Assembly: GCA_964016885.1 (NCBI GenBank)
Contig: OZ024748.1
Location: 33,108,001 to 33,172,000, forward strand
Source: Eledone cirrhosa
Lineage: Eukaryota
Direction of reading: 5' to 3'
Length of the DNA: 64,000 nucleotides
Part shown: piece by piece, positions 2,270-53,400 of the stretch
Layout of the letters: the number at the start of each line of letters is the position of its first letter
Numbering within the stretch: the first letter of the stretch is position 1
Program-made: the position numbers and the translations under genes
The notes under the pieces: generated by a model
Databases searched by the model: none
What the model saw: the letters and a program-made list of their open reading frames with translations, nothing else
Told to the model about the DNA's origin: nothing

Positions 2270-2389
2270 TATAGACATAGAATATTCGAAAATATTCTGT
2301 ATGTTTATAATAAACATTTTGAAGACCTAATCGCTATAGAATAGAATACGTCACGTATTACAATTAGATTCTCGACAAAAGCAAGGGAA

Positions 2390-3831: not shown

Positions 3832-5844
3832 TTCCCTTGCTTTTGTCGAGAATCTAATTGTAATACGTGACGTATTCTATTCTATAGCGATTAGGTCTTC
3901 AAAATGTTTATTATAAACATACAGAATATTTTCGAATATTCTATGTCTATATTCACATATATATCGCTATTTCAGAGCATTTATTCCAATTTCTAATTTC
4001 TGCCGGACCGGCAACCGCTCTTTCAAACCAGTTCATGTACACAGCTAAGTATTCTATAAGTCTCTAGCTGTGTCATTCTCGATAAAAGCACTGGATATGT
4101 AGTCCTGAAGATTTCTAATAAGAATGAAACGCGTAGATTACTTCCCTTGCTTTTGTCGAGAATCTAATTGTAATACGTGACGTATTCTATTCTATAGCGA
4201 TTAGGTCTTCAAAATGTTTATTATAAACATACAGAATATTTTCGAATATTCTATGTCTATATTCACATATATATCGCTATTTCAGAGCATTTATTCCAAT
4301 TTCTAATTTCTGCCGGACCGGCAACCGCTCTTTCAAACCAGTTCATGTACACAGCTAAGTATTCTATAAGTCTCTAGCTGTGTCATTCTCGATAAAAGCA
4401 CTGGATATGTAGTCCTGAAGATTTCTAATAAGAATGAAACGCGTAGATTACTTCCCTTGCTTTTGTCGAGAATCTAATTGTAATACGTGACGTATTCTAT
4501 TCTATAGCGATTAGGTCTTCAAAATGTTTATTATAAACATACAGAATATTTTCGAATATTCTATGTCTATATTCACATATATATCGCTATTTCAGAGCAT
4601 TTATTCCAATTTCTAATTTCTGCCGGACCGGCAACCGCTCTTTCAAACCAGTTCATGTACACAGCTAAGTATTCTATAAGTCTCTAGCTGTGTCATTCTC
4701 GATAAAAGCACTGGATATGTAGTCCTGAAGATTTCTAATAAGAATGAAACGCGTAGATTACTTCCCTTGCTTTTGTCGAGAATCTAATTGTAATACGTGA
4801 CGTATTCTATTCTATAGCGATTAGGTCTTCAAAATGTTTATTATAAACATACAGAATATTTTCGAATATTCTATGTCTATATTCACATATATATCGCTAT
4901 TTCAGAGCATTTATTCCAATTTCTAATTTCTGCCGGACCGGCAACCGCTCTTTCAAACCAGTTCATGTACACAGCTAAGTATTCTATAAGTCTCTAGCTG
5001 TGTCATTCTCGATAAAAGCACTGGATATGTAGTCCTGAAGATTTCTAATAAGAATGAAACGCGTAGATTACTTCCCTTGCTTTTGTCGAGAATCTAATTG
5101 TAATACGTGACGTATTCTATTCTATAGCGATTAGGTCTTCAAAATGTTTATTATAAACATACAGAATATTTTCGAATATTCTATGTCTATATTCACATAT
5201 ATATCGCTATTTCAGAGCATTTATTCCAATTTCTAATTTCTGCCGGACCGGCAACCGCTCTTTCAAACCAGTTCATGTACACAGCTAAGTATTCTATAAG
5301 TCTCTAGCTGTGTCATTCTCGATAAAAGCACTGGATATGTAGTCCTGAAGATTTCTAATAAGAATGAAACGCGTAGATTACTTCCCTTGCTTTTGTCGAG
5401 AATCTAATTGTAATACGTGACGTATTCTATTCTATAGCGATTAGGTCTTCAAAATGTTTATTATAAACATACAGAATATTTTCGAATATTCTATGTCTAT
5501 ATTCACATATATATCGCTATTTCAGAGCATTTATTCCAATTTCTAATTTCTGCCGGACCGGCAACCGCTCTTTCAAACCAGTTCATGTACACAGCTAAGT
5601 ATTCTATAAGTCTCTAGCTGTGTCATTCTCGATAAAAGCACTGGATATGTAGTCCTGAAGATTTCTAATAAGAATGAAACGCGTAGATTACTTCCCTTGC
5701 TTTTGTCGAGAATCTAATTGTAATACGTGACGTATTCTATTCTATAGCGATTAGGTCTTCAAAATGTTTATTATAAACATACAGAATATTTTCGAATATT
5801 CTATGTCTATATTCACATATATATCGCTATTTCAGAGCATTTAT

Positions 5845-5875
<31 letters not shown>

Positions 5876-9044: not shown

Positions 9045-12000
9045 GATATTAATAAATGGAAACTATATTTATAAAACCATATTTATTTCATTATACATAT
9101 TTCAGGGATACCACATTAAATTATGGTATGCCTTCATCAGACAAAATACAATATATAACAGATTTACAAATAGCTTTGACGTACCCTTTTAAAATACAAC
9201 CATTACTTTTGGAGGCTCTCTGGATAGTTTACATTGTTTTAATAAGTCATAGTGTTAAGCACAATTAGAAAAAGACGAAGAGAAAGAAAAAGAAAAAGAC
9301 GGAGAGAGAGAAAAGAACAAAGACGGAGAGAGAGAAAGAAAGAGAAAGAAAACCTGGAGAAATATCGGAGAGAGAGAGAAATGTATGTCGAAAAGAAAGA
9401 GATAAATAAAGATAGGAGGAAATAAAAAATAAAAAATAAAAAAGAAAGAAAAGGAAGAAATAAGAAAAACAAATGCAACAGAAAGATATCAAGTCATCAT
9501 ACAGAGAGAAAAACTCTAATAAAAATATATTTGATGAAAAATCGCAGTATTACAACGAAGCGTTAGGTAGAGCTGGATATAGAAATAAAATTAAATACAT
9601 CGATAATAATAATAATAAGCAAACTAACCAAAATAATAACAATTTCAATTACGGTAACAACTTTAACAACTATAATAGAAAACATTACAATAATTCCAAA
9701 AGCCGAAAAAGAAATAGAACTAGAAATGTATTATGGTTTGCTCCCCCTTTCTCTCTAAATATTAAAACCCCTATTGCTAAACTATTCTTTAAAGCTCTTG
9801 ACACACGCTTCCCTAGAACACATAAATATTACTCAATTTAAAATTAACTTACTCGTCCACCAAAAATTTAGCACAAAATATTAATAGAATTAATAATAGG
9901 AATTTAAAACCTAACCAAAATACCAATAATAACCCAAACAATATTCAATTAAATAACTGTAACTGTAGAAATAAATCTAACTGTCCGTTAAATAACAACT
10001 GCTTAGCTAAAAATGTAGTGTACAATTGTAATGTTAAAACTAATTTAAATTCATTTAACTATGTTGGTTCCACCTCTACAGAATTTAAATTTCGCTTCAT
10101 AAGAATTCTTTCACAGATCCAAACAAGAGATCTTCAACTTCGCTATCTAGCCTACTATGGGAGCTAAAACGAGATAATATTAAATATTCGATGAATTGGA
10201 ATATTATTTCAGAAGCTACTCCTTTTAATTCCTCTTTGTGGTCTTTGTATTGAAGAAATATTCTTTATATTAAAGTCCAAATCCCTTAATTTAAGGAACA
10301 ATTTATTCAGTTGCTGCAGACATAGATTGAACTCAACGTTTAAATATAAATATAAATTTAAAATGTAGTATTATTAATTAAGTAATTTTAGTTAATATAT
10401 GGAACCTGTCGATAAATCATTAGATTCCTTCAACTTTTTCTTTTTAAACTTTCTTCCTAAATATAAACAAGGATATAATAAACTACTCTAAAATGTCTAT
10501 ACTTCCAATGTATTAAATAAAATATACGTAAGGTAAATTTCTATACTAAATATAAGGTTATCTGTAGAATCATTGGGTTTTTAAATCTTTTAAATTATTT
10601 TTATTGATTTGTTTTGATTATAATAGCTTCTCATAACTTTCATAAGTCTACCCTTTCAATATCTTGATTGAGATACACGTAGGATAAATTTCTATACTAA
10701 ATATATAAAACATATTATTTTAACTTAAGATACTCTATAGTGTTTTAAAGATATTTAATGCTTTGATATTTCTAGATTTCTTTTGTCTATACTGATATAG
10801 TTACATTTCCAAAATATATTCCTTTGGTATTTTAAATTTATATTGTTATGGTTATATTTACAAGTTATAATCCTTTAGCAATATATTGATATTTGATTAT
10901 CTCTATACAAATGCATATGTGTATATTAACATGCATAAAAGATCTTATAGGTTTTTTGTGTCTATATATGTCTGTATATATACATGAGCGATGCGTGACG
11001 ACGCACGCAAATATTTATTTATACATATGTATGTGTATATATGTATGTGTATATATCTATGTGGTTGAGAGGTATGTTGGAGATATGCATAATATTAACC
11101 ACATGAATGGTAATCGTATATATGAGGACTTGAATGTTAATCGTATATATTTGTATATATATACTGTGAAGTTTTTATAACACAAGGAATGTATAGCAGT
11201 GATTAAGAGAATTCATTTACGTTTTGTATGGCTATATTGTTGGCTTGAGTAAACATAATTTCTATTTTCAGGACGTGCGTATCTATGTATATATATATAC
11301 ATATATATTTGTATGTCGTTGCATAAAATACTGATCTCTATAGCAAGGGTACATTTTGAACTCAGATTTTGGTATATTGATCTCAAGTTTCTAAACTAAA
11401 CATATAGTCATTATTGAACAATGTTTAATTTCTCATATTATATATCTATGTCCCATTCATGAATATTGATACTTATATTTTTATTATTCATTTCATATAA
11501 ATTGTTAACTCAACTTAATATGACATGACGTAAAGTTGTCATTGTCCCCCCCCCCCTCTCTCTATATAATATTTCTCTCTCTTGAGTTTTTCTCTCTGTA
11601 TGATGACTTGATTTCTTTCTGTTGCATTTGTTTTTCTTATCTCTTCCTTTTCTTTCTTTTTTCTTTTTTCTTTTTTATTTCCTCCTATCTTTATTTATCT
11701 CTTTCTTTTCGACATACATTTCTCTCTCTCTCCGATATTTCTCCAGGTTTTCTTTCTCTTTCTTTCTCTCTCTCCGTCTTTGTTCTTTTCTCTCTCTCAG
11801 TCTTTTTCTTTTTCTTTCTCTCCGTCTTTTTCTAATTGTGCTTAACACTATGACTTATTAAAATAATGTAAACAAATCACTATCCAGACAGCCTCCAAAA
11901 GTAATGGTTGTATTTTAAAAGGGTACGTCAAAGCTATTTGTAAAACTGTTATATATTGTATTTTGTCTGATGAAGGCATACCATAATTTAATGTGGTATC

Positions 12001-12067
12001 CCTGAAATATGTATAATGAAATAAATATGGTTTTATAAATATAGTTTCCATTTATTAATATCGTATA
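9041..12067 (+). mobile_element. Degenerate Penelope-like element with inverted ~480-bp terminal repeats
   Basis: 9041-9516 is the reverse complement of 11584-12067. Internal 9520-10330 encodes YYNEALGRAGY...RNVLWFAPPFS...CNCRNKSNCPLNNNCLAKNVVY...YVGST (PLE linker plus GIY-YIG), frameshifted. Confidence 0.85.
11963..12016 (+). ncRNA. Hammerhead-like core in PLE terminal repeat (mirror copy 9091-9144 minus; diverged relative ~17750-17800 minus)
   Basis: CUGAUGA, long stem II AGG(C)AUACCAUA/UGUGGUAU(C)CCU, then GAAA. The stem I/III register is imperfect, so it is probably decayed. Confidence 0.6.
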
Positions 12068-17466: not shown

Positions 17467-17899
17467 GTAAACAGAAATAAGAACACAATCGGTACAGTAT
17501 ATGGAAGAGATATATTAGGTTAATGATTGATACAACAGGAAGAGGGTCTTAACGTTTCGGACGCTAGTCCTCCATAAAAAAAAAGGATGAGAAATAAAAT
17601 AGATTAAGGGGACGGCTGGGCGGGAATTTGAAAAAAATGTCTTTAGATAAAAATACAAGTTCTTTCATGTTGACATCTCTTGCAAAACTATATATATATA
17701 TCAATGATATTAATAAATGGAAACAATATTTATAAAACCATATTTATTCTATTATATATATTTCAAGGGTACCTAAACTTTGTTATGCTCTCATCAGATA
17801 AAATACAAAGTTTGTTTTATAAATAGTGACATACCCAGGAATGATACCCTAACGGTTCAAGTTTCTCCTGGATAGTGAAAGGGAAGAAAGAAAAAAACA

Positions 17900-19193
<1,294 letters not shown>

Positions 19194-19849: not shown

Positions 19850-22292
19850 GCAACTTTTACAAACAACCGCAATGACAGAGGACGGAGACATCGTTATGCT
19901 AGCAGGGAACTTCAATGGTCATGTTGGTCAGCTCCAGGATAGTTACATTGGGGTACATGGTGGGCACGGTTACGGCTCAAGAAATGAAGAAGGAGTGAGA
20001 CTACTTGAATTTTGTGATGCAAGTACACTGAATATTTGCAACACTAACTTACAGAAACCTGCCAACCCCACCTAATAACCTACAAATCAGCCGAGCACAT
20101 AAGCCAGATTGACTTCTTACTAGTTAGGCAGAGGGACAGGCAGATGGTGTCAAATACCAAGGCATACTCTGGGGAAGAATGTACCCCACAGCATAGGTTA
20201 GTCGTTAGTGATATCTCAGTAAGCAAGAGATGAAATAAGATATACAGGAAGGTATGTAAAAGAAAGGTCTGGAAGCTAAAAGACCTTTCACTAAAATACA
20301 AATTTAGGAAAGCCCTTCAAGATGTGTATAACGAAAAAGAAGACGATTTAGAGACGTATGACATAGATAATAACTGGAATTTCTTACGTGACAACTTACT
20401 GCAGGCTACTGATGAAACTTGTGCCTGGAGCAGAGCTCCAACCAGACAGAGAGTGACCTGGTGGCGGAACAGCACAGTAGATAAGGCCATTAGAGACAAA
20501 TGACTAGCATGGAAGGCTTGGAAAAAGGGTGGGAGTAGGGAAGAATATACAGTCGCTAAGAGAGAAGTTAGACGTCAGGTGTACTTAGCACGCAGGGAGG
20601 CGGAGAGTAGGAGGTTTGCCAATGTTCTGCGATGGGAAGATCAGAGGCGTGCGGTGTTCCACAATGCAAGGCAGTGTGTCAATGCAAATCAGAATGTTGT
20701 TGGAGATAAATGTGTCCGGAATGATGCCGGTGTACGTAGTGTCACGAATGATCAGAAAAAGGAGGCCTGGAAATGTCATTATGAGAGACTGATGAATGTG
20801 GAGAACAAATGGGAGAGAGAGAAATTACCCTCAGTAGATCCGACAGAGGGACCAGCTATTGAGATTGACGAATATAGGGTCCAAGAGGCGATTAAGGAAA
20901 TGAAAAATGGTAAGGCTGCTGGACCGTCGGGGATAGTTGCTGAGATGCTGAAGGCATCAGGGGACATAGGCACTAAACTGGTTGCACGCATCATCAATCT
21001 GGTTATACATGGTGGTGTCATACCCAAATACTGGTGCAGCAGTATTCACATAAATTGCTACAAAGGTAAAGGGGATGCGCTGGAGAGGAGCAATTATAGG
21101 GGTATAAAACTGATGGATCAGGTTATGAAAGTGGCAGAAAGGATATTAGCACAACTAATTAGAGAAAGGGTCAAACTAGATGAGATGCAGTTTGGTTTTG
21201 TGCCTGGGAAAATACAACAGATGCCCTCTTCTTGGTGAGACAATTACAAGAGAGGTTCTTAGAGAAGAGTAAGCCACTATACTTAGCCTTTGTTGACCTA
21301 GAGAAGGCCTTTGATAGGGTACTCCAATCTCTCATCTGGTGGTCCCTAAGGAAACTAGGTGTTGAGGAATGGCTTGTGAGGACAGTGCAAACTTTGTACA
21401 GAGGTGGTGTCAGTAAAGTGAGGCTAGGAATGGAGTTTAGTGAGGAATTCCAGATACAAGTAGGAGTACATCAAGGTTCCGTTCTCATCCCGCTCTTGTC
21501 CATTATAGTCCTCCAAGCCATAACAGAGGAGATTATGACTGGCTGTCCATGGGAACTTCTCTATGCTGATGATCTGGTTCTTATAACAGAATCAGTAGTT
21601 CAATATGCATAAAAGGAACTAGCATAAATTCTATAAAATACACACAATGCAGATCCTGGGTACACAAGAGATGTAGTGGGATAGCAAGGAAACTAACAGG
21701 TAGGGAGAAATACGTATGCAGTAGATGTACAGGGAAATTAGACAGTAGAAGTCGCAGTGATAGACACATTTTTCTATTCCGGGCGGGTGCTATAGAAGTG
21801 GTGGATAGCTTCCGGTACCTAGATCAGATTAGCATGGGAGAGGGGTGTTCTGGGGCCATAGTATCTAGAATAAGGACGGGTCGGAAGAAGTTTAGGGAGC
21901 TGCTGTCGAAGAAGAGTTTTCCCTTGTGTAGGAAAGGCCGGTTACATGATGCCCGTGTGAGGAGCGCGATGCTGCATGGTAGTGAGACATGGACAGCAAC
22001 TGCAGAGGATATGCGACGGCTGGAGAGAAATGAGGCAAACATGCTGCGTTGGATGTGCAATGTTAATGTGTGTGAATGAACCAGCATGGATGTGTTGAAA
22101 GAGAAACTGGGTCTGAGAGGAATAGAATGTAGTGTGCGAGAGAGGAGACTGAGGTGGTATGCACATGTGATGCGCATGGAGGATGACCGATGGGTGAACA
22201 AGTGCCAGGAAATGCCAGTTGAAGGAAGACGTATTAGAGTTAGACCACGAAAAACATGGGCGGAGGTGGTGAGAACAGATATGTTTAAATTT
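19850..22292 (+). mobile_element. RTE-clade LINE, degenerate (AP endonuclease plus RT)
   Basis: GNFNGHVG, QIDF, KAAGPSG, NYRGIKL, QFGFVPG, FVDLEKAFDRV, GVHQGS, LYADD, RRLRWYAHV; many stops and frameshifts. Confidence 0.92.
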
Positions 22293-22910: not shown

Positions 22911-25900
22911 TGTAGCGACGTGGTTAGTCAGTCTGGTCACTACTTCCGATCAGATCCGAGAATAACCCTTAAAAGGACTGTTATCGCATATGGTCTGATC
23001 GTATCTGAAGATAGCCCTTAAAAGAACTGTTGTCACATACGGTAAGGATGAACAGACGAAAGCACAAGTTAAAAGGACGAAGCATGGCGAGAGATCTAAT
23101 TTCGATCAGCTAGTTATTTTCACATGAAGCGACGATACAAGTTACAAGGCGTGTGTGAGTGACAAGTGTGGCAGAGGCGAGGAACAACGATACGCGAGTT
23201 GACTCTGCCAAATGTCGACCGGCGAAAGTGTTTGGAATCACTCTATTTTTACAGAAATAATCGTTTGATGTTTAGCTGCTGTGTAGACGTTTATTCTGGT
23301 GACTTCTAAGGGTTGTTTGTTTCACGGTGAGGTAGCTAGCTAACAGATAGATGGAGCTGTATATTTCACAGATGTTATTTCCGGTGGCTGTACATTAGCC
23401 CCCCTGCCAGATCTTTTGTACAACAAAAGAGCGAAATATCGTATAGTAATGGGCCAGTGGTGCATATGTCATGACAATAGCCCAAGGAGTGTCCAGCACG
23501 TTGTGAAATTTTGTGATCATCGAGTTCGAACGAAAATGTGTGTCCAATCTTTAATGTCTGAAGGTACGTGTGTGGCCGTGTTCTGTTGACGGGTGTTTTC
23601 AGGAGCAAGGTGAGACATATATTGTCGAGGACGGTGTACGTATGATCCTGGGTCTGGAACATCCCGAGGAGAGATGGGAGCAACCATCTGACCAGGTAGA
23701 ACCAGGGTGGTGCCGTACACTAATTCTGCAGGTGTGTGTCCGAATTCCTCCTTAACGGTGGATTGAATGCCCAGAAGGCAGGTATTCAAACCAGTGGGTC
23801 TTGTCTGGATATGCTTTTATTGCAGCTTTCAATTGCGATGGATTCTTTCCACGAGACCATTAGCTTGCGGGTGATAAGCTGTCGTGCGAATGTGTTTACA
23901 TCCTAACAGGCGAGTCAGTTCCCTGAAGAGGTGGAAGTCAAATTGGCGTCCTCTGTCCGTTGTTATCTTCGATGGGGCGCCATAACGTGATACCCAGTGT
24001 AAAACAAAAGTTTTAGCGACTGTTTCCGCTGAGGTATCATTTATGGGAAAAGCCTCAGGCCAACGGGAAAATCGATCTATGCAGGTGAGCAAGTGTGTGT
24101 AGTTCTGTGATGGTGGTAGAGGTCCGACGATGTCGATATGCACATGATGAAAACGTGCATCAGGTTGCGCGAATGTGCCGAGTGGAGTTTTGATGTGTCT
24201 GTGGACTTTGGTTTTCTGGCAGGCAATGCAGCTCCTGGACCAGTCGCGCACGTCGTTGTTAATGTTAGTCCACACAAAACGAGCAGAGATGAGTTTCTGT
24301 GTAGCCCGGATTCCCGGGTGAGACAAGCAGTGTAAAGCAGAAAAAACTTGTCGACGATGCATCTGTGGTACGTGCGGTCGTTCATGACCGGTAGAAAGGT
24401 CGCACCAAATTTGTCCCGGATAAGAAGGAATGGGAACTTGCTGAAACTTGAGGGATGGCGAATCTCGGAGCTTGATAAACTCTTCGTCAGTCTCTTGGTC
24501 AGCTGGGATCTGTTGAAGGTCGATGCCTGAATGCACATGTATTGCGTTCAGCTGGATTCGGGACAGGGGGTCGGCTGCTACGTTGTCTGATCCCTTGATA
24601 TGCCGAATATCAGTTGAATATTGGGAGACAAAATCCAGGTGTCGGAGTTCTCTCGGTCAATGTCGATCAGGTTTGGTACGGAACGCATAAACTAGTGGTT
24701 TATGGTCCGTGTAGATCACGAAATCTGATCCTTCGAGCATGTGCCAAAAATGCTTAACCGAAAGATAGGTTGCCAAGAGTTCGCGGCCAAAGGTACTGTA
24801 TTTCGTTTCTGCCGGTTGCAACCGCTTAGAAAAGAAGGATAAGGGTTGCCATACGCCGTCGACATGTTGTTGTAAAACGCCTCCAACCCCCGTGTCTGAT
24901 GTGTCCACTAGCAGCGAAAGAGGAGCGCCAGACCTGGGGAAAACGAGCATGGAAGCGTTTGCCAACATTTCCTTCAGGCGGTTAAAAGATGTTAATTCTT
25001 CCTCGTTTAGAGTGATCTCTTCGTTTTTGCGAGTCCGGTTACGAAGAAGGTCTGTGAGGAGTCTGGCTGCGTCGGAACAATGAGGTATGAAACGCCTATA
25101 AAAATTCACCAGACCGAGGAATTCACGCAGTTTCCGAAGTGATATAGGTGCGGGAAAACTGCGGATAGCTTCTACTTTTTCGGGAAGTGGACGAATGCCG
25201 TCTTTATAGATGATGTGCTCGAGAAAGGACAGGGAAGGAACGCCGAGAAGGCACTTGATGGGGTGGTTGATGATACCGTACTCAGCCAAACGTTGGAAAA
25301 GGAGATCTAAGTGCTTCTCGTGTTCTTGCTCGGATGTACTTGCTACCAGCACGTCGTCAATATACGCGTATACGAAGGGTAGATCACGTAACACGGTGTC
25401 AATAAACCGCTGAAAAGTTTGTGCAGCGCTGCGCAGACCGAACGTCATTCGCAGGAATTCAAATAAACCGAACGGTATTGTGATTGCGGTCTTCGGAATA
25501 TCTGCAGGCTCCATAGGTATCTGGTTATATACAGGCACCAAATCTATCTTGGAATAGATGCGTGCGCCTTGCAGGGAGGCAGAAAAGTCGTGCAGGTGAG
25601 GTACAGGGTAATTATCGGGTACTGTAGAATTGTTAAGTGCACGATAATCCCCACATGGTCGCAAATCATTCTCGGTTTTTTAGGAAGTGTAGGGGTGCAG
25701 ACCAGTTGTTGGAAGAAGGGCGAATGATTCCGAGGTCCAGCATGTGTTGGAATTCCTGATTGGCGATTCTCAATCGGTCTGGAGGCAGTCTCCTTGGTCG
25801 GGCAGCTGTGGGTGGTCCTCTTGTCTCGATGTGGTGTGTGACACTATGCTTAATAGGACCATCCTTAAATACCGGGCGAGTGATGTCTGGGTATTTCTGG

Positions 25901-26579
25901 AGAATGCCGTTGTACCGCGAAGACTCTGACTGGCAAATTACAGGGCTCACTGTGGATTGCGTGGTTAATATACCTCTCACAGTGAGGTTTGTGGTGGTGT
26001 CAATAAGCCTATGAGATAACAGTCCTTTTAAGGGCTATCCTCGGATCTGATCGGAAGTAGTGACCAGACTGACTAACCACGTCGCTACAATTGGTGACCC
26101 CGACGTGATTAGTCAGTCTGGTCACTACTTCCGATCAGATCCGAGAATAGCCCTTAAAAGGACTGTTATCGCATACGGTCTGATCGTATCTGAAGATAGC
26201 CCTTAAAAGAACTGTTGTCACATACGGTAAGGATGAACAGACGAAAGCACAAGTTGAAAGGACGAAGCAAGGCGAGAAATCTAATTTCGATCAGCTATTT
26301 ATTTTTACATGAAGCGACGATACAAGGTACAAGGCGTGGGTGAGTGACAAGCGTGGCAGAGGCGAGGAACAACGATACGCGGGTTGACTCTGCCAAATGT
26401 CGACCGGCGAAAGTGTTTGGAATCACTCTATTTATACAGAAATAATCGTTTGATGTTTAGCCGCTGTGTAGGCGTTTATTCTGGTGGTTTTTAAGGGTTG
26501 TTTGTTTCACGGTGAGGTAGCTAGCTAACAGATAGATGGAGCTGTATATTTCACAGATGTTATTCCCGGTGGCTGTACA
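22911..26579 (-). mobile_element. Ty3/Gypsy LTR retrotransposon, gag/protease deleted, pol disrupted
   Basis: Direct LTRs 22911-23394 (TG...CA) and ~26101-26579. Polypurine tract (cccccct on plus) next to the left LTR. RT (YIDD)-RNase H at 24657-25664 and integrase (HHCC, DIVGP, TDRG, ER) at 23829-24536, in gypsy order. Confidence 0.95.
26092..26109 (+). promoter_or_regulatory. Primer binding site, probably tRNA-Trp, in inverted orientation
   Basis: TGGTGACCCCGACGTGAT follows an LTR end (...CTACA, 26089). It is complementary to the eukaryotic tRNA-Trp 3' end as recalled, not searched. Confidence 0.75.
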
Positions 26580-27857: not shown

Positions 27858-28195
27858 GTATGTATATATTTATATATATATATATATATATATATAAATT
27901 GAAACAAAATGAAAACGAAATTTCATTTCTCACTCTTAGTATGGCACTTACTTAAATGTAAGTATGCATGTATACGTACATACATATATGTATACAGACG
28001 TACAGTAGCATGCACATATATATATATATACATATATATATACATATGCATACAGGTACACATACATATATGCACGTATCAGTTTAGCGGCGCTAACGTC
28101 GCTTTGTTCGTTTGTAAACAAACTGAACAGCCTGAATTTATGCCATACGGTGTTAAGGCAACCACGTCACCTTTTTGTTCAACACTGACACAGGA

Positions 28196-28238
28196 ACGAT
28201 GTACTAGTTTCAAGCTTGTTAGCTATCATCAGCACCGT
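28196..28238 (-). ncRNA. Type I minimal hammerhead ribozyme (also starting at 28660, 29124, 29588, minus strand)
   Basis: Reverse complement is ACGGUG CUGAUGA U-AGCU-AACA-AGCU-U GAAAC UA GUA CAUCGU. Confidence 0.9.
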
Positions 28239-30297
28239 TTACCCATCTGCCAGATAGTTGAACGTTCGAAAGTATATACTTTCCTTATGAAAATTAACGG
28301 CTGAGCAGCCTAATTTGCATATTGAGTGAGTTAAATCGGTCAGGCATACCGAAAACGATAAATTGAAACAAAATGAAAACGAAATTTCATTTCTCACTCT
28401 TAGTATGGCACTTACTTAAATGTAAGTATGCATGTATACGTACATACATATATGTATACAGACGTACAGTAGCATGCACATATATATATATATACATATA
28501 TATATACATATGCATACAGGTACACATACATATATGCACGTATCAGTTTAGCGGCGCTAACGTCGCTTTGTTCGTTTGTAAACAAACTGAACAGCCTGAA
28601 TTTATGCCATACGGTGTTAAGGCAACCACGTCACCTTTTTGTTCAACACTGACACAGGAACGATGTACTAGTTTCAAGCTTGTTAGCTATCATCAGCACC
28701 GTTTACCCATCTGCCAGATAGTTGAACGTTCGAAAGTATATACTTTCCTTATGAAAATTAACGGCTGAGCAGCCTAATTTGCATATTGAGTGAGTTAAAT
28801 CGGTCAGGCATACCGAAAACGATAAATTGAAACAAAATGAAAACGAAATTTCATTTCTCACTCTTAGTATGGCACTTACTTAAATGTAAGTATGCATGTA
28901 TACGTACATACATATATGTATACAGACGTACAGTAGCATGCACATATATATATATATACATATATATATACATATGCATACAGGTACACATACATATATG
29001 CACGTATCAGTTTAGCGGCGCTAACGTCGCTTTGTTCGTTTGTAAACAAACTGAACAGCCTGAATTTATGCCATACGGTGTTAAGGCAACCACGTCACCT
29101 TTTTGTTCAACACTGACACAGGAACGATGTACTAGTTTCAAGCTTGTTAGCTATCATCAGCACCGTTTACCCATCTGCCAGATAGTTGAACGTTCGAAAG
29201 TATATACTTTCCTTATGAAAATTAACGGCTGAGCAGCCTAATTTGCATATTGAGTGAGTTAAATCGGTCAGGCATACCGAAAACGATAAATTGAAACAAA
29301 ATGAAAACGAAATTTCATTTCTCACTCTTAGTATGGCACTTACTTAAATGTAAGTATGCATGTATACGTACATACATATATGTATACAGACGTACAGTAG
29401 CATGCACATATATATATATATACATATATATATACATATGCATACAGGTACACATACATATATGCACGTATCAGTTTAGCGGCGCTAACGTCGCTTTGTT
29501 CGTTTGTAAACAAACTGAACAGCCTGAATTTATGCCATACGGTGTTAAGGCAACCACGTCACCTTTTTGTTCAACACTGACACAGGAACGATGTACTAGT
29601 TTCAAGCTTGTTAGCTATCATCAGCACCGTTTACCCATCTGCCAGATAGTTGAACGTTCGAAAGTATATACTTTCCTTATGAAAATTAACGGCTGAGCAG
29701 CCTAATTTGCATATTGAGTGAGTTAAATCGGTCAGGCATACCGAAAACGATAAATTGAAACAAAATGAAAACGAAATTTCATTTCTCACTCTTAGTATGG
29801 CACTTACTTAAATGTAAGTATGCATGTATACGTACATACATATATGTATACAGACGTACAGTAGCATGCACATATATATATATATACATATATATATACA
29901 TATGCATACAGGTACACATACATATATGCACGTATCAGTTTAGCGGCGCTAACGTCGCTTTGTTCGTTTGTAAACAAACTGAACAGCCTGTATGCATGTA
30001 CTGTATGCATATGTACCTGTATGCATATGTATATATATATGTATATATATATATATGTGCATGCTACTGTACGTCTGTATACATATATGTATGTACGTAT
30101 ACATGCATACTTACATTTAAGTAAGTGCCATACTAAGAGTGAGAAATGAAATTTCGTTTTCATTTTGTTTCAATTTATCGTTTTCGGTATGCCTGACCGA
30201 TTTAACTCACTCAATATGCAAATTAGGCTGCTCAGCCGTTAATTTTCATAAGGAAAGTATATACTTTCGAACGTTCAACTATCTGGCAGATGGGTAA

Positions 30298-30340
30298 ACG
30301 GTGCTGATGATAGCTAACAAGCTTGAAACTAGTACATCGT
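30298..30340 (+). ncRNA. Type I minimal hammerhead ribozyme (also starting at 30762, 31226, 31690)
   Basis: Stem I ACGGUG/CAUCGU; CUGAUGA...GAAA; stem II AGCU/AGCU; palindromic stem III ACUAGU; predicted cleavage after GUA (30334). Confidence 0.9.
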
Positions 30341-31970
30341 TCCTGTGTCAGTGTTGAACAAAAAGGTGACGTGGTTGCCTTAACACCGTATGGCATAAAT
30401 TCAGGCTGTTCAGTTTGTTTACAAACGAACAAAGCGACGTTAGCGCCGCTAAACTGATACGTGCATATATGTATGTGTACCTGTATGCATATGTATATAT
30501 ATATGTATATATATATATATGTGCATGCTACTGTACGTCTGTATACATATATGTATGTACGTATACATGCATACTTACATTTAAGTAAGTGCCATACTAA
30601 GAGTGAGAAATGAAATTTCGTTTTCATTTTGTTTCAATTTATCGTTTTCGGTATGCCTGACCGATTTAACTCACTCAATATGCAAATTAGGCTGCTCAGC
30701 CGTTAATTTTCATAAGGAAAGTATATACTTTCGAACGTTCAACTATCTGGCAGATGGGTAAACGGTGCTGATGATAGCTAACAAGCTTGAAACTAGTACA
30801 TCGTTCCTGTGTCAGTGTTGAACAAAAAGGTGACGTGGTTGCCTTAACACCGTATGGCATAAATTCAGGCTGTTCAGTTTGTTTACAAACGAACAAAGCG
30901 ACGTTAGCGCCGCTAAACTGATACGTGCATATATGTATGTGTACCTGTATGCATATGTATATATATATGTATATATATATATATGTGCATGCTACTGTAC
31001 GTCTGTATACATATATGTATGTACGTATACATGCATACTTACATTTAAGTAAGTGCCATACTAAGAGTGAGAAATGAAATTTCGTTTTCATTTTGTTTCA
31101 ATTTATCGTTTTCGGTATGCCTGACCGATTTAACTCACTCAATATGCAAATTAGGCTGCTCAGCCGTTAATTTTCATAAGGAAAGTATATACTTTCGAAC
31201 GTTCAACTATCTGGCAGATGGGTAAACGGTGCTGATGATAGCTAACAAGCTTGAAACTAGTACATCGTTCCTGTGTCAGTGTTGAACAAAAAGGTGACGT
31301 GGTTGCCTTAACACCGTATGGCATAAATTCAGGCTGTTCAGTTTGTTTACAAACGAACAAAGCGACGTTAGCGCCGCTAAACTGATACGTGCATATATGT
31401 ATGTGTACCTGTATGCATATGTATATATATATGTATATATATATATATGTGCATGCTACTGTACGTCTGTATACATATATGTATGTACGTATACATGCAT
31501 ACTTACATTTAAGTAAGTGCCATACTAAGAGTGAGAAATGAAATTTCGTTTTCATTTTGTTTCAATTTATCGTTTTCGGTATGCCTGACCGATTTAACTC
31601 ACTCAATATGCAAATTAGGCTGCTCAGCCGTTAATTTTCATAAGGAAAGTATATACTTTCGAACGTTCAACTATCTGGCAGATGGGTAAACGGTGCTGAT
31701 GATAGCTAACAAGCTTGAAACTAGTACATCGTTCCTGTGTCAGTGTTGAACAAAAAGGTGACGTGGTTGCCTTAACACCGTATGGCATAAATTCAGGCTG
31801 TTCAGTTTGTTTACAAACGAACAAAGCGACGTTAGCGCCGCTAAACTGATACGTGCATATATGTATGTGTACCTGTATGCATATGTATATATATATGTAT
31901 ATATATATATATGTGCATGCTACTGTACGTCTGTATACATATATGTATGTACGTATACATGCATACTTAC

Positions 31971-32045
<75 letters not shown>

Positions 32046-33377: not shown

Positions 33378-35790
33378 CATATGATGGCTGCCCCCTCGTT
33401 ATCGAGTATGGCCATTGCACGAAAAAAAACAAAACATAATAATAACAATAATAATATACATATATATATATATACACACGCGCGCACACATAAACATATC
33501 TACATACACACACACTTTCGAGTCCAGCTTTGCTTAGGCAGAGTCTCGCACAGACGCTGCATGTCAGCGCCAAAGGAGGACCTTCGCCGTCTGGAAATGC
33601 AACAGCAATGCCCTTCCTCACATCCCGCTTTACTTTCTCGTATGCGATTCAAGATGCCTCAAAGGCAACTTTTCCCTCATATACAGTCTTTCTCCATTTA
33701 TTACGACCAGCAGCAACATTTTCCCATGTATCAACAGAGATGTTAGCATCTTTTTTTGGTTTATATAGAGGTCGTTTTCCTTTAACTAACTCTCCATAAA
33801 AGATTTGTTTTCGTATTCTAGTATCCTTCATCCTGAAAAGATGAGCACTCCAACGGAGTCGTTGCTTAAGCACAAGAGCTTCTAAACTGTCACACAGAGA
33901 GCTTTAAAAAATCTCGACATCACTGATGTGGTCCCTCCAGTGAACGCCATGGATCCGTCTAAGACACATCTGATGGAAACGCTTCAATTGCTTAAGGTGC
34001 TGTCAATATGTGACCCAGGTCTCGCAGGCATAAAGAAGAGAAGAGAGCACACATGCCTTGTACATCTTTACCTTTGTCTTCTTGCATATGTCTCGCCGAC
34101 CCCAGAGTCACCTTTCTAGCTTTCCGAAAGCATCACTTGCTTTCCTAAACCTGAGTGGGATTTCATTATCAAGGTTGCTGTATCGATTGACAGTGCTTCC
34201 CAGGTAGACAAACTGATCAACCACTCCAAGTCGTTTACCATACACATAGCTATTTGGTTCACTGTACTGCTTACCAGGGGCAGGTTGGTACATGACGACG
34301 GTTTTCTTGAGACTGACAGTCAATCCCAGGACATTGCAAGCATCAGAAAATGCATTCAAAATGTGCTGCATATCACTCTCTGTGTGCGCTACAAGATTGC
34401 AATCATCTGCATACAAGAGGTCTCTTATGATTGATGTAAACACTTTTGTTTTGCAGCAAAGCGCCTGATGTTAATTATGCTGCCTGGGGTTCGATATCAG
34501 ATGTAAACACCATGCTTGCAATTCCTGAATGCAATATAGAAAACCATTGCAAGGTATATGGCAAACAGGGACGGTGCTGGAATATCCCCTTGTTTCACTC
34601 CATTTTTTACTGAGATAGGCTCCGACATGTTACCTCCGACAAAAACCTGATACAGATCCAAACCTTGTTCCATGCACTTCTCCTGGAGGTGTCTAGCTGA
34701 GAAAATCACATCAGTAGTGCCGCGTCCAGCACGAAAACCAGATTGACTGACAAGAAGAACACAATCTGCAATGTGTGTCAGCAATGTGTGTCTTCTATAT
34801 GTTCATCATTCTCATTAAACCCGTCTTGATGTTTTCTCTGCACCAAGCCTGCCTACATCATAAACCGACTTTTTAAGGGTCGGCCAATCCTCACCAAGAT
34901 CTGCAACCTGCATCTCTTCTTGCAATGTCCTCTTCACATTTTTATCCCTAAGACGAGCACCATTCAATCTTCTGGGCAGGGCAACACCAGGAGCCCGGAT
35001 TTTACGTTTAGTGATTAGTTTCACTTTTGCGCGTACCAGGCGGTGGTCCGTCCAGCACTCAGCCCCACGAAGAGCACGAACACACTGCACATCCTGACTG
35101 ACACGCATCCTGACTAGAACGTAGTCCAAAAGATGCCATTCCTTAGATGCAGGATGCATCCATGTGGTCTTAAATTTGTTCTTTTGTTGGAACATGGTGT
35201 TGGTAACACACAGATCCAGCTCCTCCCACATCTGCAGCAGGAGCACACCATTTTTGTTACACTTTCCCACCCCATACCTTCCGATTACATTCTATGTGTT
35301 AAAATCCCTACCCACTCTAGCATTAAAGTCACCAAGCACGATGACTTTGTCTGCCAGAGAGATATTTCTTAAAACACCTTTCAAGGCATGGTAAAAGGAC
35401 ACTTTTTCTTCATCGACAGAATTCCTAGTTGGAGTATACACACTCACCAGGGTCGCATATCTTCCTTTTTCCAGCGGAATTCTCATGGACATAAGACGCT
35501 CACTAATCCCTACTGGGAATTCTTCTAATTTATTCACAAGAACAGTCTTAACAGTAAATGCTACCGCAGTCTCTCTTCTGGTTCCTTCATCTCTTCCTTT
35601 CCAGAAGAATGTATATTCTCCACAAAATTCTGTAAGATGACCATCTCCAGCTAACCTCGTCTCAGATAAAGCCACGATGTCAAGATCGTAACGTCGAAGC
35701 TCCTTTGCAACAAGAGCGATCCTTCGTTCAGGGCGTTCCAAGGAATCCCTGTCAAGCAGCGTCCGTACGTTCCAGCAGCCAAGACTAAAT
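33378..35790 (-). mobile_element. RTE-clade LINE, degenerate, with 3' tail
   Basis: WNVRTL, ALSETR, GDFNARVG, WHLLDYV, QSGFRAGRGT, GVKQG, LYADD, RLRWSAHL. Tail ...ggggcagccatcat at (TA)n. Confidence 0.92.
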
Positions 35791-35954
35791 GCCTTGTTTG
35801 GCTCTATTACAGTGGCACGATGACGAGCGGGCCCAGTATGTTATAACCTGGGGCCCCTGCCATTATTGCCAATTATCTCTTTTGTTCCAGAACCTTTATT
35901 GCCAATTATCTCTTTTATATTGTTTTGGAACATCATTGAATTGGGAAAAAAAAA

Positions 35955-40679: not shown

Positions 40680-41019
40680 ATCATCATCATCATCATCATT
40701 TTACGTCCGCTTTTCCCTGCTTGCAAGGGTGGGGCGGGAACTGATTCTGGCTTGATTTCTACAGCTGGATGCCCTTCCTAACACCAACCTCATTTACAGT
40801 GAGTGCTGGGTGCTTTTTTGCCGTGGCACCTCCACGACCACTTTGCAGTGGAATGATATGGACTCCAGTCCCTATCATCTCATTTCTACAGCTGAGTAAA
40901 CTGGAGCAATGGGAAATAAAGTGTCTTGCTGAAGGAAACAACACATCACCCGGTATGAGAATTGAACTCACAACCTTTCGATTGCAAGGCCAATGCTCAA
41001 ACTATTAAGCCATGTGCCC

Positions 41020-41099
<80 letters not shown>

Positions 41100-41192
41100 G
41101 GGCACATGGCTTAATAGTTAGAGCATTGGCCTTGCAATCGAAAGGTTGTGAGCTCAATTCTCATACCGGGTGATGTGTTGTTTCCTTCAGCA
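40680..41192. mobile_element. SINE family B (minus, 40680-41022) plus inverted head copy (plus, ~41096-41192) across (TA)n
   Basis: 41096-41192 is a near-perfect reverse complement of ~40927-41023. Confidence 0.85.
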
Positions 41193-41194: not shown

Positions 41195-42380
41195 TATGTA
41201 TAAGAGGAATTCCAACTTTGTCTGATTTACTCGTTTTATTTACAATCCTTTAACATTTATAATGGTATCATAATGAAATAGTATGATAGAATATTAAATT
41301 CTAAGTGTTAATTGAACAAGTACTTTCATGCTTTCGCAATCTTCAGGTTCATAATATGTGGTGACAGTCAAGTTTGCAATTTTCAACTGTAATGAGATGG
41401 GTAAATTTTGTACCTTATATACAGTGAAAAGTGGCTCCAGAATGCTAAATCTTGCAAACTGTTTTTCGACCAATCGGTGTGTAGTTTCACTGAATTACTA
41501 AAGCTAATTGGTTTAAGCGTCATGGCTGGTTGAGCATGTCTAACGACCAATAATTAATCCTATCCAAAGCATCAATTGTTTTGCTATTTTTAGAAATGAT
41601 GAAAATAGCATTTTCTAGTAATCATCACCATCAACATCACTTTTATTATTATTATTATTGTTGTTGTTGTTGTTGTAAGTGGTCGTAGTCGACATGGTCG
41701 TAGTCATAGTCATAGTAGAAGTAATACCCCTAAGCGTTATTATTGTTCATTTAGCTTGGGTTTTAATTTATCAATAACATTCTTTTCTTTGATTTTTCTC
41801 TTGATTTCACTTGGGCTGTGTAATTTGTAGAATGGGAATATTATAAATATTCCCTGACCACATGTTGCTAGATGGTTACTTAGGGGTATCTGACGGACAT
41901 TTGGGTCTCTGATTTGCTGACGGTGTACCCGTGCACGTTCCGATAATGCATTTCCAGTTTGACCGACATATAGTTCTTCACAATTCGGGCATTTAATGCA
42001 GTAAATTAGATTTCTGCTTTTGCAGTTCATATTTGCATTTGGGAATATTTTTCCAGTTTTTGTTTTCATATATTGACCGGCGTGTATGGATTGACATGTG
42101 CCGCATCGACTATCATTGCATTTAGATACAGTGAATGATTGGTCTTTGTTGTTAAGGTCAAACTTTGTTTTTGTTAGTAATTGCTTCAAATTTTTTTTTT
42201 TTTGTCACCAGAATATCTTCAACACTGCCAAAGCAAACCTACCGATCATTGCTCAAAGTAATGAATTAAAAGGCTTAATCACAGATCGATCTTTGACTTT
42301 TGGTAAAAGACAGCCAAAAAATTTGAAGCAATTACTCACAAAAGCAAAGTTTGACCTTAACAACAAAGATCAATCATTAT
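41195..42380 (-). mobile_element. Penelope-like element 3' part (GIY-YIG ORF 41740-42189) with inverted upstream fragment (plus, ~42205-42378)
   Basis: CNDSRCGTC...NCKSRNLIYCIKCPNCEELYVGQTGNALSERARVH. KQLLTK(T/A)KFDLNNKDQS is present on both strands. Confidence 0.9.
41313..41351 (-). ncRNA. Intact-looking minimal hammerhead in PLE pLTR
   Basis: UGAAC CUGAAGA U-UGC-GAAA-GCA-U GAAA GUAC UU GUUCA: 5-bp stem I, palindromic stem III AGUACU. Confidence 0.88.
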
Positions 42381-47492: not shown

Positions 47493-50400
47493 TACACTCA
47501 CAACACACACTACTCTCCCACAACATACACTACTGCTACACAACACAGACTACTGCACCACAACACCCGCTACTTCACCACAACACACTACTGATTCACA
47601 ACACACATTATTGCCTCCACAACACACGCTACTACACCACAACACACACTACTCCCCCCCCCCCCAACACACTACTGCACCACAACACACACTACTGCAC
47701 CACAACACACACTACTGCCCCACAACACTTTCTCTTCCACAACACATACTGCTGCCACACAACACGCACTACTGCCCCACACCACACACTACTGATCCAC
47801 AACTCACACTACTTCCCCCACAACACACACTACTGCCCCACAACACACACTATTGATCCACAACACACCATACTGCGCCACCAAACACACGACTGCCCCC
47901 ACAACACACACTACTGACCCACAACACACATAATTTCCCCAACAATACTAACTACTGATCCACAATAGACTCTACTGACCCCACAACACACACTACTGCA
48001 CCACAACACACACTACGGCAACAAAACACACACTACTACACCACAACGCACACTACTGTACACGCTACTGCCCCCACAACAGAGACTACTGCCCCACAAC
48101 ACACACTACTACAACGCAACGAACACTACTGCTCCACAACATACACTACTGAATTACAACACTTAATACTGCCCCACAACACACACTAGTGCGCAACAAC
48201 ACACACTAATGACCCACAACACACACTACTGCACCACAACATACACTATTGTAAAACAACACACACTACTGCACCACAACACACACTACTGCACCACAAC
48301 ACACACTACTGTCCCACAACACACACTACTGCCCCACAACATACACTATATGCACGACACACACTACTGCCCCACAACACACACTACTGCTCCACAACAC
48401 AGCATACTGCCCCACCAAACACACGACTGCCCCACATCACACACTACTGACCAACAACACACTACTGCCCCACAGCGCACACTACTGATCCACTATAGAC
48501 ACTACTGCCTCCACAACACACACTACTTCCCCCCAACACACTACTGCCCCACAACACACACTACTGCACAACAGCACACATTACTGCACCACAACACACA
48601 CTACTGCCCCCACAACAGACACTCCTGGCCCACAACGAACACTACTGCCCCACAACACACACTACTGACCCACAACACACGCTACTGCCTCCACAACAGA
48701 GACTACTGCCCCACAACACACGCTACTGCCCCACAACACACACTACTGCCCCACAACACACACTACTGCAACACAACGAACACTACTGCTCCACAACATA
48801 CACTACTGCATCACAAAACAAACTACTGCAATAACACACACTACTGCTCCCACAACACACACTACTGCACCACAACATACACTATTGCACAACAACACAC
48901 ACTACTGCCACACAACGCACACTACTGATCTACAACAAAAGCTAGTGACTCCACATCACACACTACTGCCCCACAACACACACTAGTGATCCACAACGCA
49001 CACTACTGCTTTCACAACACACACTACTGCACAACAACACACACTACTGCCACACAACGCACACTACTGATCTACAACAAAAGCTAGTGACTCCACAACA
49101 CACACTACTGCCCCACAACACACACTACTGCTCTACAACACACACTACTGCCCCACAACCCACACTAATTCCCCACATTACATACGACTGCCCCACAACA
49201 CACCATACTGCCCCACAAAACACACGACTGCCCCACAAAACACACTGCTGATCCACAATAGACACTACTGCCCTCATAACACACACTACTTGCCCCCAAC
49301 ACACTACTGCCCCGCAACACACACTACTGCCCCACAACACTCACTCATCCACAACAGACACTGCTGCACGCAACGCACACTACTGCCCCACAAAAGACAC
49401 TTCTGTACCGCAACACACACTAACTACTGATCTACAATAGACACTACTGCCCCCACAACACACACTACTGCCCCACAACACACACTACTACACCACAACA
49501 CACACTACTGCACCACAAAATACACTACTGCCACACAACAAACACTACTGCACCACAACACACACTGCTGCATCACAACACACACTACTACCCCACAACA
49601 CACACTGGTGCCACACAACACACACTACTAACCCACAACACACAGTACTGCCCCACAACACAAATTACTGAACCACAACACACAATACTGCACCACAACA
49701 CACACTACTGTCCCCCACAACACACACTACTACCCCACAACACACACTACTGCCCCATAACACACACTACTACACCACAACACACACTTCTGCCCCACAA
49801 CACGCACTACTGATATACAACACACTACTTCCCCCACAGCCCACACTACCTCCTCAAAACACACACTACTGCCCCCACAACAGCCACTACTGCACCACAA
49901 CACATACTACTGCCCACTAAACACACACTACTGTCCCCCACAACACACACTACTGCTACACAACACACACTACTGCCCCACAACACACACTACTACACCA
50001 CAACACACACTACTGCACCACAACACACACTACTGCACCACAACGCACACTACTGCACCACAACACAGGCTACGGCCCTAACAACAGAGACTACTGCCCC
50101 ACAACACAGGTTACTGCCCCACAACACGCACTACTGCCCCACAACACACACTACTGCAACGCAACGATCACTACTGCTCCACAACATACACTACTGAACC
50201 ACAACACTTAATACTGCACCACAACACATGCTAGTGCGCAACAACACACACTAATGCCCCACAACACACACTACTGCACCACAACATACACTATTGAAAA
50301 ACAACACACACTACTGCACCACAACACACACTACTGCACCACAACATACACTATTGCACAACAACACACTCTACTGCACCACAACACACACTATTGCACG

Positions 50401-53400
50401 CCAACACACACTACTGCCCCCACAACAGACACTACTCCCCCACAATAGACACTACTGATTCACAACACACACTACCGCCCTCACAACACACAGGACTGCA
50501 TCACAACAAATACTACTGCGCCACAACACACACTACTGCCGCCACAACAGACTCTACTGCTCCAGAACACACACTACTGCCACACAACACAAACTACTGC
50601 CCCACAACACATAGTACTGCCCCACAACACACACTACTGCCCCACAACATACACTACTCCCCCACAACACACTCTACTGCCTCACAACACACACTACTGC
50701 ACGATAACACACACTGCTGCACCACAACACACACTACTGCCCCACAACAAAAACTACGGCCCACAAACTACTGCTCCACAACACACACTACTGTCCCACA
50801 ACACACACTACTGTCCCACAACACACATTGCTGCCACATAACACACACTACTGCCCCACAACACACACTAATGCTCCACAACACACATTGCTGCCACATA
50901 ACACACACTACTGCCCCACAACACACACTACTGCACCACAACACACACTACTGAACCACAACACACACTACTGCCCCAAAACACACACTAGTGCCCAACA
51001 ACACACACTACTGAAACACAACATACAGTATTGCACAACAACACACACAACTGAACCACAACACACATAACTGCCCCCTCAACAGACACTACTTCCCCAC
51101 AGCACACACTACTGCCCCACAATACACACTACTGATTCTCAACACACACTACCGCCCTCACAACACAAACTACAGCACCACAACAAACACTACTGCGCCA
51201 CAACACACGCTGTTGCATCACAACATACACTACTGCCAGCAACACAAACTACTGCCCCACAACACACACACTACTGGCCCATAACACACACTACTCCACC
51301 ACAACACACACTACTGCCCCACAACAGACACTACTGATACAAACTACTGCCCCACAACGCACACTACTGCTCCACAACACACACTACTGCCCCACAACAC
51401 ACACTAATGCTCCACAACGCACATTGCTGCCACATAACACACACTACTGTCCCACAACACACACTAGTGCCCAACGACACACACTACTGCACCACAACAT
51501 ACAATATTGCACAATAACATACACTACTGCACCACAACACACACTACTGCACCACAACACACACTACTGCACCACAACACACACTAGTGCCCAACAACAC
51601 ACACTATTGCACCAAAACATACAGTTTTGCAGAACAACACACACTACTGCAAAACAACACACACTGCTGTCGCCACAACAGCCACTACTGCCCCACCACG
51701 CACACTACTGCCCCACAACACACACTACCGCCCTCACAACACAAACTACAGCACCACAACAGACACTACTGCGCCACAACACACGCTGCTGCATCACAAC
51801 ATACACTACTGCCACACAACACAAACTACTGCTCCACAACACACACTACTGCCCCACAACATACACTACTCCACCACAACACACTCTACTGCCTCACAAC
51901 ACACACTACTGCACGACAACACACACTGTTGCACCACAACACACACTACTGCCCCACAACACACACTACTGATACAAACTACTGCCCTACAACGCACACT
52001 ACTGCTCCACAACACACACTACTGCCCCACAACACACACAAATGCTCCACAACACACATTGCTGCCACATAACACACACTACTGTCCCACAACACACACT
52101 AGTGCCCAACGACACACACTACTGCACCACAACATACACTATTGCACAATAACATACACTACTGCACCACAACACACACTACTGCACCACAACACACACT
52201 ACTGCACCACAACACACACTAGTGCCCAACAACACACACTATTGCACCAAAACATACAGTTTTGCATAACAGCACACACTACTGCACAACAACACACACT
52301 ACTGTCCCCACAACAGCCACTACTGCCTCACAACGCACACTACTGCCCCACAACACACACTACCGCCCTCACAACACATACTACTGCCCCACAACAAACA
52401 CTACTGCCCCACAACCCGCTCTACTGATCCACAACACACACTGCTTCCCCCACACATACACTATGGTCCCCACAATACACACTACTGTCCCACAACATAC
52501 ACTACTTCCCCCACAACACACACTACTGTCCTCACAAAACACAATATTGCCCCCACAATATTCGCTACTGCCCAACAACACACACTACTGCACCAATACA
52601 CACACTAGTGCCTCCACAAAACAGACTACTGCCCACAAGACACACTACTGCCTCACAATATACACTACTGATCCCCAACAGACACTACTGATCCTATAAC
52701 ACACACTAGTGCACCACAACAAACACTACCGCCCCCACAATAGACACTACAGTCCCACAACACACACTACTGCACCTCAACACACACCACTGTTCCACAA
52801 CACACACTGCTGCATCACAACTCACACTACCGCCCTCACACTACCGCCCTCACAACACAAACTACAGCACCACAACAAACACTACTGCGCCACAACACAC
52901 GCTGCTGCATCACAACATACACTACTGCCACACAACACAAACTACTGCCTCACAACACACACTACTTCCCCACAACATACACTACTCCACCACAACACAC
53001 ACTACTTCCCCACAACTCACACTACTGTACCACAACATACACTACAGCCTCACAACACACACTACTACACCGCAAAAAAAACTACTGCGCCACAACACAC
53101 ACTAGTGTCACAAAACACACACTATTGCCCCACAATACACACTACTGCGCCCACAATACACACTACTGATCCACAACACGCACTACTGCCCCCACAACAC
53201 ACACTACTGCACCACAATACACACTTCTGACCCACAACGCTCACTACTGAACTACAACACACACTACTGACTTCACAACACACACTACTGCCCCACAACA
53301 CACATTTCTGCTCCACAACACACACTACTGCCCCACAACACACACTACTGCACCGCAAACTCACTACTGCACCACAACACACACTGCTGCCACACAGAAC

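Follow-up and report, generated by a model that had tools for sequence, protein, structure and literature searches.

Two inverted hammerhead arrays and their surroundings

The window analyzed here is a 64,000-nt stretch (positions 33,108,001-33,172,000) of contig OZ024748.1 of Eledone cirrhosa. It holds two tandem arrays, A and B, each made of two inverted halves with their 5′ ends facing inward and lying within (TA)n sequence (Table 1; position 1 of a unit is the first letter after the cut). A descriptor scan found 8 copies of the family A hammerhead (4 minus and 4 plus), 11 copies of the family B hammerhead (4 minus and 7 plus), and four other hammerheads besides these 19. Families A and B gave no alignment to each other outside the hammerhead. 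The right and left arms of array B overlap by 2 nt at the array center, and long stop-free frames in the family A unit run only through its TA-rich part.

Table 1. Arrays, hammerheads and Penelope-like element (PLE) remains in the window
Feature	Position	Strand	Remark
Family B hammerheads, minus copies	2390-2432, 2700-2742, 3010-3052, 3320-3362	-	
Array B left arm, 4.4 units of 310 bp	2257-3615	-	short end at unit position 139
Array B right arm, 7.2 units	3614-5850	+	long end at unit position 165; tail about 5825-5850
Family B type I hammerhead, 43 nt	3789-3831	+	then plus copies every 310 bp up to 5649-5691
Array A left arm, 4.5 units of 464 bp	27894-29993	-	3′ end at unit position 308 (long end), into (TA)n
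Family A "tail", unit positions 250-308	27894-27952	-	terminal on left arm only
Other family A hammerheads, minus copies	29588-29630, 29124-29166, 28660-28702, 28196-28238	-	
Array A inversion center	29994-30003		few extra letters, repeating nearby unit sequence
Array A right arm, 4.2 units	30004-31975	+	3′ end at unit position 249 (short end), into (TA)n
UAA bulge (30295-30297) and GGG	30292-30297	+	GGG: weak pairing with UCC 30341-30343 possible
Family A type I hammerhead, 43 nt	30298-30340	+	predicted cut after 30334
Other family A hammerheads, plus copies	30762, 31226, 31690	+	
U·U hammerhead in 3′ pseudo-LTR of autonomous PLE	41313-41351	-	outside the retrozyme families
End of 5′-truncated PLE ORF, GIY-YIG endonuclease	41740-42204	-	

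The U·U hammerhead at 41313-41351, which has a 5-bp stem I, a 3-bp stem II and a CUU triplet, sits about 390 nt after the GIY-YIG frame of a PLE. This frame had 29,496 candidates in the genome, the 150 that were scored being 93-100% identical, and in several of these 150 relatives the open frame is 775 residues long and includes RT and GIY-YIG parts. In the 775-residue frame, GIY-YIG gave a match, the RT match (27.9 bits) fell just under the Pfam cut-off, and a CX4CxxC linker was recognized by eye; such a linker has been tied to Neptune/Nematis PLEs and to a (TA)n bias (Craig et al., 10.1101/2021.04.23.441226). The hammerhead, or a one-letter variant of it, follows the PLE frame in 27 of the 30 loci examined. 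An earlier note on this DNA had proposed a covariance model built from 41313-41351 together with the array motifs. It is a real U·U hammerhead but a different motif, the pseudo-LTR hammerhead of an autonomous PLE, and is best kept apart from those of A and B.

Hammerheads with a long helix II were also observed at 9084-9148 (minus), 11959-12023 (plus) and 17745-17805 (minus). The first two, minus then plus, lie on either side of broken frames at 9464-10167, which resemble PLE frames by eye and gave no Pfam match. A hammerhead-like core in which one more letter precedes helix II lies at 1972-2005 (plus), about 250 bp left of array B, and cores of this type are frequent among the genome matches listed. 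Elsewhere, two inverted tRNA-like (SINE-like) copies surround an (AT)n run at 40944-41175, and a 20-bp minisatellite of about 640 copies (47499-60399), built of two inverted halves meeting near 54970, is followed by 30-bp and 48-bp arrays up to the window end. By eye, 84-bp C2H2 zinc-finger repeats, LINE-like RT/endonuclease relics and a Gypsy-like pol relic occupy 18217-19193, 20504-22079, 23829-26034 and 34108-35840.

Fold and class of the array hammerheads

Both array hammerheads are 43 nt long in the descriptor scan, and most of what the earlier note had read in them was found as described. Stem I is GUAGUC/GAUUAC in A and ACGGUG/CAUCGU in B, with G·U as its third pair counted from the core; 10.1-11.1 is occupied by U·U, four stem II pairs surround AAUA or AACA, the palindromes are ACGCGU and ACUAGU, and the triplet is GUA. 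In family A, a seventh stem I pair (A-U) is possible. Both motifs have the type I core CUGANGA/GAAA/UH with three helices and an open helix I, together with a 6-bp helix I, a 4-bp helix II and candidate residues for a loop 1-loop 2 contact. In an Rfam scan, the hammerhead family was absent from the best 150 of 193 matches at E≤1, a list filled by microsatellite matches.

To evaluate the fold, we aligned all 52 distinct motifs of the frame found in the DNA examined, broken ones included. Covariation had been claimed from the two arrays, and the alignment bears it out, with 88.8% of paired cells pairing versus 72.1% after shuffling (reached by 0 of 500 shuffles) and 34-51% when the register was slid; since the 52 rows stem from some five lineages and their selection relied on core patterns, shuffling makes the result look more significant than it is, and the figures count as support for the fold and not as a significance test. 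Stem I was paired in 94.6% of cells and changed on both sides at five of its six pairs. Overall, 12 of 17 pairs showed two-sided changes, and as many were reached in 65 of the 500 shuffles. Two-sided changes were also seen within families, from G·U to U·G at stem I pair 3 in A and from U-A to A-U at pair 10.2 in C. Helix III consists of a single A·U pair and a 4-nt palindrome, the latter being retained as UA, GC or AU in 50 of the 52 variants.

The bulge preceding stem I carries A in 52/52 rows and a 5′ U in 47/52. When 10.1-11.1 is counted as its first pair, helix II has 4 bp and closes on the 6-nt loop U-A-A-H-A-A, in which the first U and the last A are invariant (52/52) while the three pairs below covary. 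An invariant U-A "fourth pair" above covarying pairs agrees with a loop 2 of 6 nt, the last A of which would contact the first U of the bulge; a contact between a 5′ U of loop 1 and a 3′ A of loop 2, as well as a UAA loop 1, are described in PMC3064770. The UAA bulge of family A is likely loop 1 of a loop 1-loop 2 contact. The proposed extension of stem I past this bulge fared less well: the sequence is present, but pair probability in the claimed register is at most 0.08, and the outer pair of the 3-bp extension fails in 28 of the 52 variants, making it the weakest item of the earlier note.

Nearest-neighbor calculations were consistent with the suggestion that the palindromic helix III supports a dimer. 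The predicted double hammerheads reached -19.0, -15.3 and -14.2 kcal/mol for families A, B and C (the last described below), versus -2.2, +4.2 and +2.6 kcal/mol for two monomers, and the double fold was estimated to lie 13-19 kcal/mol below two drawn monomers. The double hammerhead was the cofold minimum for B only, not for A or C. The circular monomers were predicted to be strongly folded (z of -7.7, -4.6 and -9.6 with 40 shuffles each), with stem I formed in circular B and C and partly formed in the ensemble of A. Given a one-pair palindromic helix III and the computed stability of the double fold, cleavage of multimeric transcripts would likely be dimer-dependent.

Pattern counts were next extended to the 3.0-Gb assembly. 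The U·U core pattern gave 22,368 + 21,519 matches versus 11 + 12 for the reversed control, so the motif is not due to chance. The family A pattern accounted for 13,003 + 12,267 = 25,270 matches and the family B pattern for 7,090 + 7,099 = 14,189, with no match to either control. The same frame with a non-U letter at 10.1 matched 8,061 + 7,645 = 15,706 times (control, 6 + 8); those listed were mostly family C or a family B variant with A-U, with isolated C-G and G·U cases at 10.1-11.1. Family C has a 466-bp unit, G-C at 10.1-11.1, a UAA bulge, an AACA loop and an ACUAGU palindrome, and outside the ribozyme it is homologous to family A (66.5% over 245 nt, E 1e-8). The 52 variants comprised 39 U·U, 8 G-C, 2 A-U, 2 G·U and 1 C-G at 10.1-11.1, and the last letter of their cleavage triplet was A in 40, U in 6 and C in 6. 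Separately, C1 contains additional hammerhead families (e.g., L036, L039, L059, L072 and L112) in which U·U or A-U precedes stem II and the palindromes are different.

These counts bear on the earlier proposal that the features shared by A and B define a distinct U·U hammerhead subtype. U·U is common to both families despite their failure to align elsewhere, A and B dominate the census (39,459 matches), and further U·U motifs exist, that of the PLE included. However, C, the homologue of A, has G-C, a B variant has A-U and an A variant has C-G, so that within lineages 10.1-11.1 alternates between a U·U and a Watson-Crick pair. G·U at stem I pair 3 is present in just 24 of the 52 variants, the remaining features shared by A and B are all canonical, and the traits, U·U among them, are already in print. 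U·U was therefore not found fixed together with other features, and a distinct subtype is very unlikely. Judged from the sequences compared, position 10.1-11.1 is variable and tolerates U·U, which does not mark a subtype. The array motifs are ordinary animal hammerheads within tens of thousands of tandem repeats.

Array ends and the proposed origin

Insertions were compared in the window and in the first 37 Mb of C1, leaving out single-armed copies and L170, one end of which falls outside the stretch. Among the first 100 matches listed per pattern, counted by hand, 28 strand switches within 1 kb were minus-to-plus (11 with the B pattern, 6 with the non-U pattern and 11 with the A pattern) and none was plus-to-minus; a lone plus-to-minus switch at 1.1 kb was present in the listed matches. 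Arms ended at one of two places in the unit: position 139 (short) or 165 (long) in B, the short end possibly lying up to about 11 nt earlier owing to TA overlap; near 234-250 or 308 in A; and 228-234 or 298-303 in C. Most ends run into (TA)n or TA-rich sequence, with exceptions including L134, which meets (CAT)n, and L168. Each two-armed insertion with both ends assignable paired one short with one long end, namely, 15/15 in B (one short end being at 126 and one long end coming from blastn), 7/7 in C (8 seen, one with a broken end) and 13/13 in A (17 seen, four with an end broken or unassignable, by eye). Neither short+short nor long+long was seen among these 35 assignable insertions, and independent, equal choice of ends would give 35/35 with odds of about 3 in 10^11.

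The arms of an insertion also resemble each other in sequence. The commonest unit was identical on both arms in all nine B arrays that have whole units on both, while units differed by 0-7 letters between the 13 B arrays compared. Five of 15 center junctions mapped reliably, with an overlap of 1-3 nt in four and six extra letters in one; the remaining 10, in which mapping broke off at subfamily variants, were excluded. The stretch between short and long ends forms a tail of 26-37 nt in B and about 60-75 nt in A and C. An inverted 5′-truncated arm, a tail on one end and a microsatellite target are traits of non-autonomous PLEs, and in the autonomous PLE itself, all 6 of the two-armed insertions have one short end, the opposite end bearing a tail of about 40 nt. 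Among 70 loci with PLE protein matches or PLE-related context, which cover a minority of the PLE families in the genome, none contained an autonomous PLE with sequence similarity to A, B or C; the A match in L205 and the B-like matches in L182 and L102 seem to be independent insertions.

Two simple accounts of the ends were tried and rejected. If the second arm were copied off the first cDNA by fold-back, the short-ended arm should not be the longer one, as it often is (7.6 versus 1.5 units in L168, and 14.8 versus 0.5 in L176). Arms do not end at the cleavage site either, as no intact arm stops there. Two arrays of unusual composition were also recorded. L176 (G000:C1:14044535-14051131) has a 15-unit C arm with palindromic and non-palindromic helix III variants in irregular order, and this mixing suggests template switching or later conversion. 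L078-L090 (G000:C1:1239857-1244284) is a 14-unit B array with A-U at 10.1-11.1 on both arms; its units have one extra letter in the stem I 3′ strand, and its center flips more than once.

The arrays show the traits of non-LTR retrozymes: short tandem units with one type I hammerhead each, GC below 50%, no LTR or ORF, and a highly self-paired predicted monomer circle. We consider it quite probable that they are such elements, whose multimers would self-cut as double hammerheads and be written back by a PLE enzyme. Array transcription would yield a multimeric RNA, in which two hammerheads are predicted to pair via their palindromic helix III and cut after GUA, a mode of cutting demonstrated in print for amphibian and PLE relatives. 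Monomers would then be ligated into circles, which the weak helix III should protect from recutting, as published work leads us to expect. The ends further suggest, at the level of junctions, PLE-driven insertion of whole arrays: an RT/GIY-YIG protein would nick a (TA)n target on both strands and start cDNA inside the unit, at the short site from one strand and at the long site from the other. Each cDNA would cover 0.3 to about 31 units of a circular or multimeric template, and the two would meet at a variable center to form a head-to-head array. The template may be a circle or an uncut multimer, both of which fit the layout equally. We favor, with some reserve, the reading that an array arises in one insertion: a PLE protein, likely as a dimer, would prime both target strands using one and the same retrozyme sequence, each of the two fixed internal starts serving one strand, and would make multi-unit cDNA on both. 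The strict pairing of short and long ends (35/35 for the retrozymes and 6/6 for the PLE) would then mean that the two PLE start sites are coupled in each event.

Other origins account for less of this layout. Unequal crossing-over might have expanded a single PLE end or retrozyme monomer into a satellite on the spot, a route of local tandem growth sketched in a preprint (10.64898/2026.07.22.740005) and in line with long arrays that contain variants, such as L170, with 8 distinct among 17 units, and L176, with two helix III variants. This would leave unexplained the multi-unit identical inverted arms and the thousands of short arrays, dispersed and with paired ends at fixed sites, and we regard it as unlikely, although in-place growth may add units after insertion. 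Twin priming yields head-to-head inversion, and the inversion of the arrays, together with LINE-like RT frames in the window (motifs by eye), could be taken to indicate that a LINE copied the RNA in this way. Yet the arrays lack a poly(A) or tandem 3′ tail, and the local PLE has the same layout; in addition, two fixed internal ends match the PLE tail, a feature that non-LTR TPRT does not show according to Craig et al. (10.1101/2021.04.23.441226). We consider a LINE origin highly improbable. Finally, several inverted repeats inside a single window might raise the suspicion of assembly or fold-back read artefacts, but a fold-back artefact would mirror the flank, whereas here flanks differ, arms differ in length and end site, polarity is one-way and centers vary, so that we give this explanation hardly any weight.

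Comparison with published hammerheads, retrozymes and PLEs

The double-hammerhead, dimer-dependent inference is, from the texts cited, an already published model (PMC4209133, PMC7229834, PMC3088659). PMC4209133 gives the canonical metazoan type I hammerhead a helix I of 6 bp, a helix II of 4 bp and a short helix III closed by a palindromic loop, and has it work as a dimer within tandem repeats, where multimers are cut and monomeric circles spared; PMC6765202 cites Lünse et al. for dimer cleavage. Natural U10.1-U11.1 hammerheads were reported by Perreault in 2011 (PMC3088659), with U·U as the best-tolerated mismatch. The repeat-type and U10.1-U11.1 motifs of that paper resemble ours in U·U and in a palindromic stem III read as a dimer, although in the sections drawn on here U·U is not linked to repeat-type motifs, unlike in the present arrays. 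In the axolotl (PMC7229834), HHR_Amex1, with a one-pair helix III and a palindromic tetraloop, cleaves to 6% as a monomer, and HHR_Amex2, with U·U at the base of helix II, to 22%, both performing better as dimers. Our motifs combine an Amex1-kind helix III with an Amex2-like U·U (Amex2 having a two-pair helix III), and the dimer-enhanced cleavage seen in axolotl and newt satellite 2 is predicted here. Their helix III is amphibian-like, whereas most invertebrate motifs in the parts of PMC7229834 considered here cleave as monomers. In a Xenopus test, 8/9 retrozyme dimers gave no cleavage (10.64898/2026.07.22.740005).

As elements, the arrays resemble the metazoan non-LTR retrozymes of Cervera and de la Peña (2020, PMC7229834) in being tandem repeats whose units measure a few hundred bp, are low in GC, lack an ORF, contain a single type I hammerhead each and are predicted to form a structured circle; the A and C units (464-466 bp) slightly exceed the 150-450 bp quoted there. 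In the sections of that paper drawn on here, the inverted two-armed layout with paired ends does not appear, and a limited literature search found no prior description of paired ends in retrozyme arrays. The mobilizer of animal retrozymes is treated as open in PMC7761336, which names PLEs as candidates while stating that no motif points to a partner. More recently, a 2026 preprint by Li, Clavereau and Pollet (10.64898/2026.07.22.740005) presented animal retrozymes as non-autonomous PLE derivatives on the basis of co-occurrence and pLTR homology and phylogeny, mainly in vertebrates; the words "tail" and "junction" are absent from its main text. Paired ends bear on the same question of which reverse transcriptase moves animal retrozymes, adding independent, mechanism-level support for PLEs, and they predict at which template positions priming begins, a prediction open to in vitro testing. 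If each array is one insertion with coupled starts, these RNAs of 310-466 nt would be compact substrates for reconstituting two-strand priming and rolling-circle reverse transcription by PLEs.

The closest parallels to the layout are found among PLEs, for which Craig et al. (10.1101/2021.04.23.441226) list an inverted 5′-truncated copy and a 30-40-bp tail on one end. According to PMC11167929 (Frangieh, 2024), a PLE protein cuts AT-rich DNA on both strands and reverse transcribes from two internal starts that bound the tail; a dimer is predicted, start sites did not differ between the strands, and hammerhead cleavage is not needed in vitro. Like Neptune-like and non-autonomous PLEs such as MRC1, our arrays combine an inverted 5′-truncated copy, a one-end tail, a microsatellite target and multi-copy tandems. 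Unlike PLEs, they have no ORF and, in the 70 loci searched, no sequence link to a local autonomous PLE, and the tails of A and C are longer than those quoted for PLEs. Taken together, the hammerhead traits are all published, and the insertion layout is a modest, testable addition to what is described for these systems.
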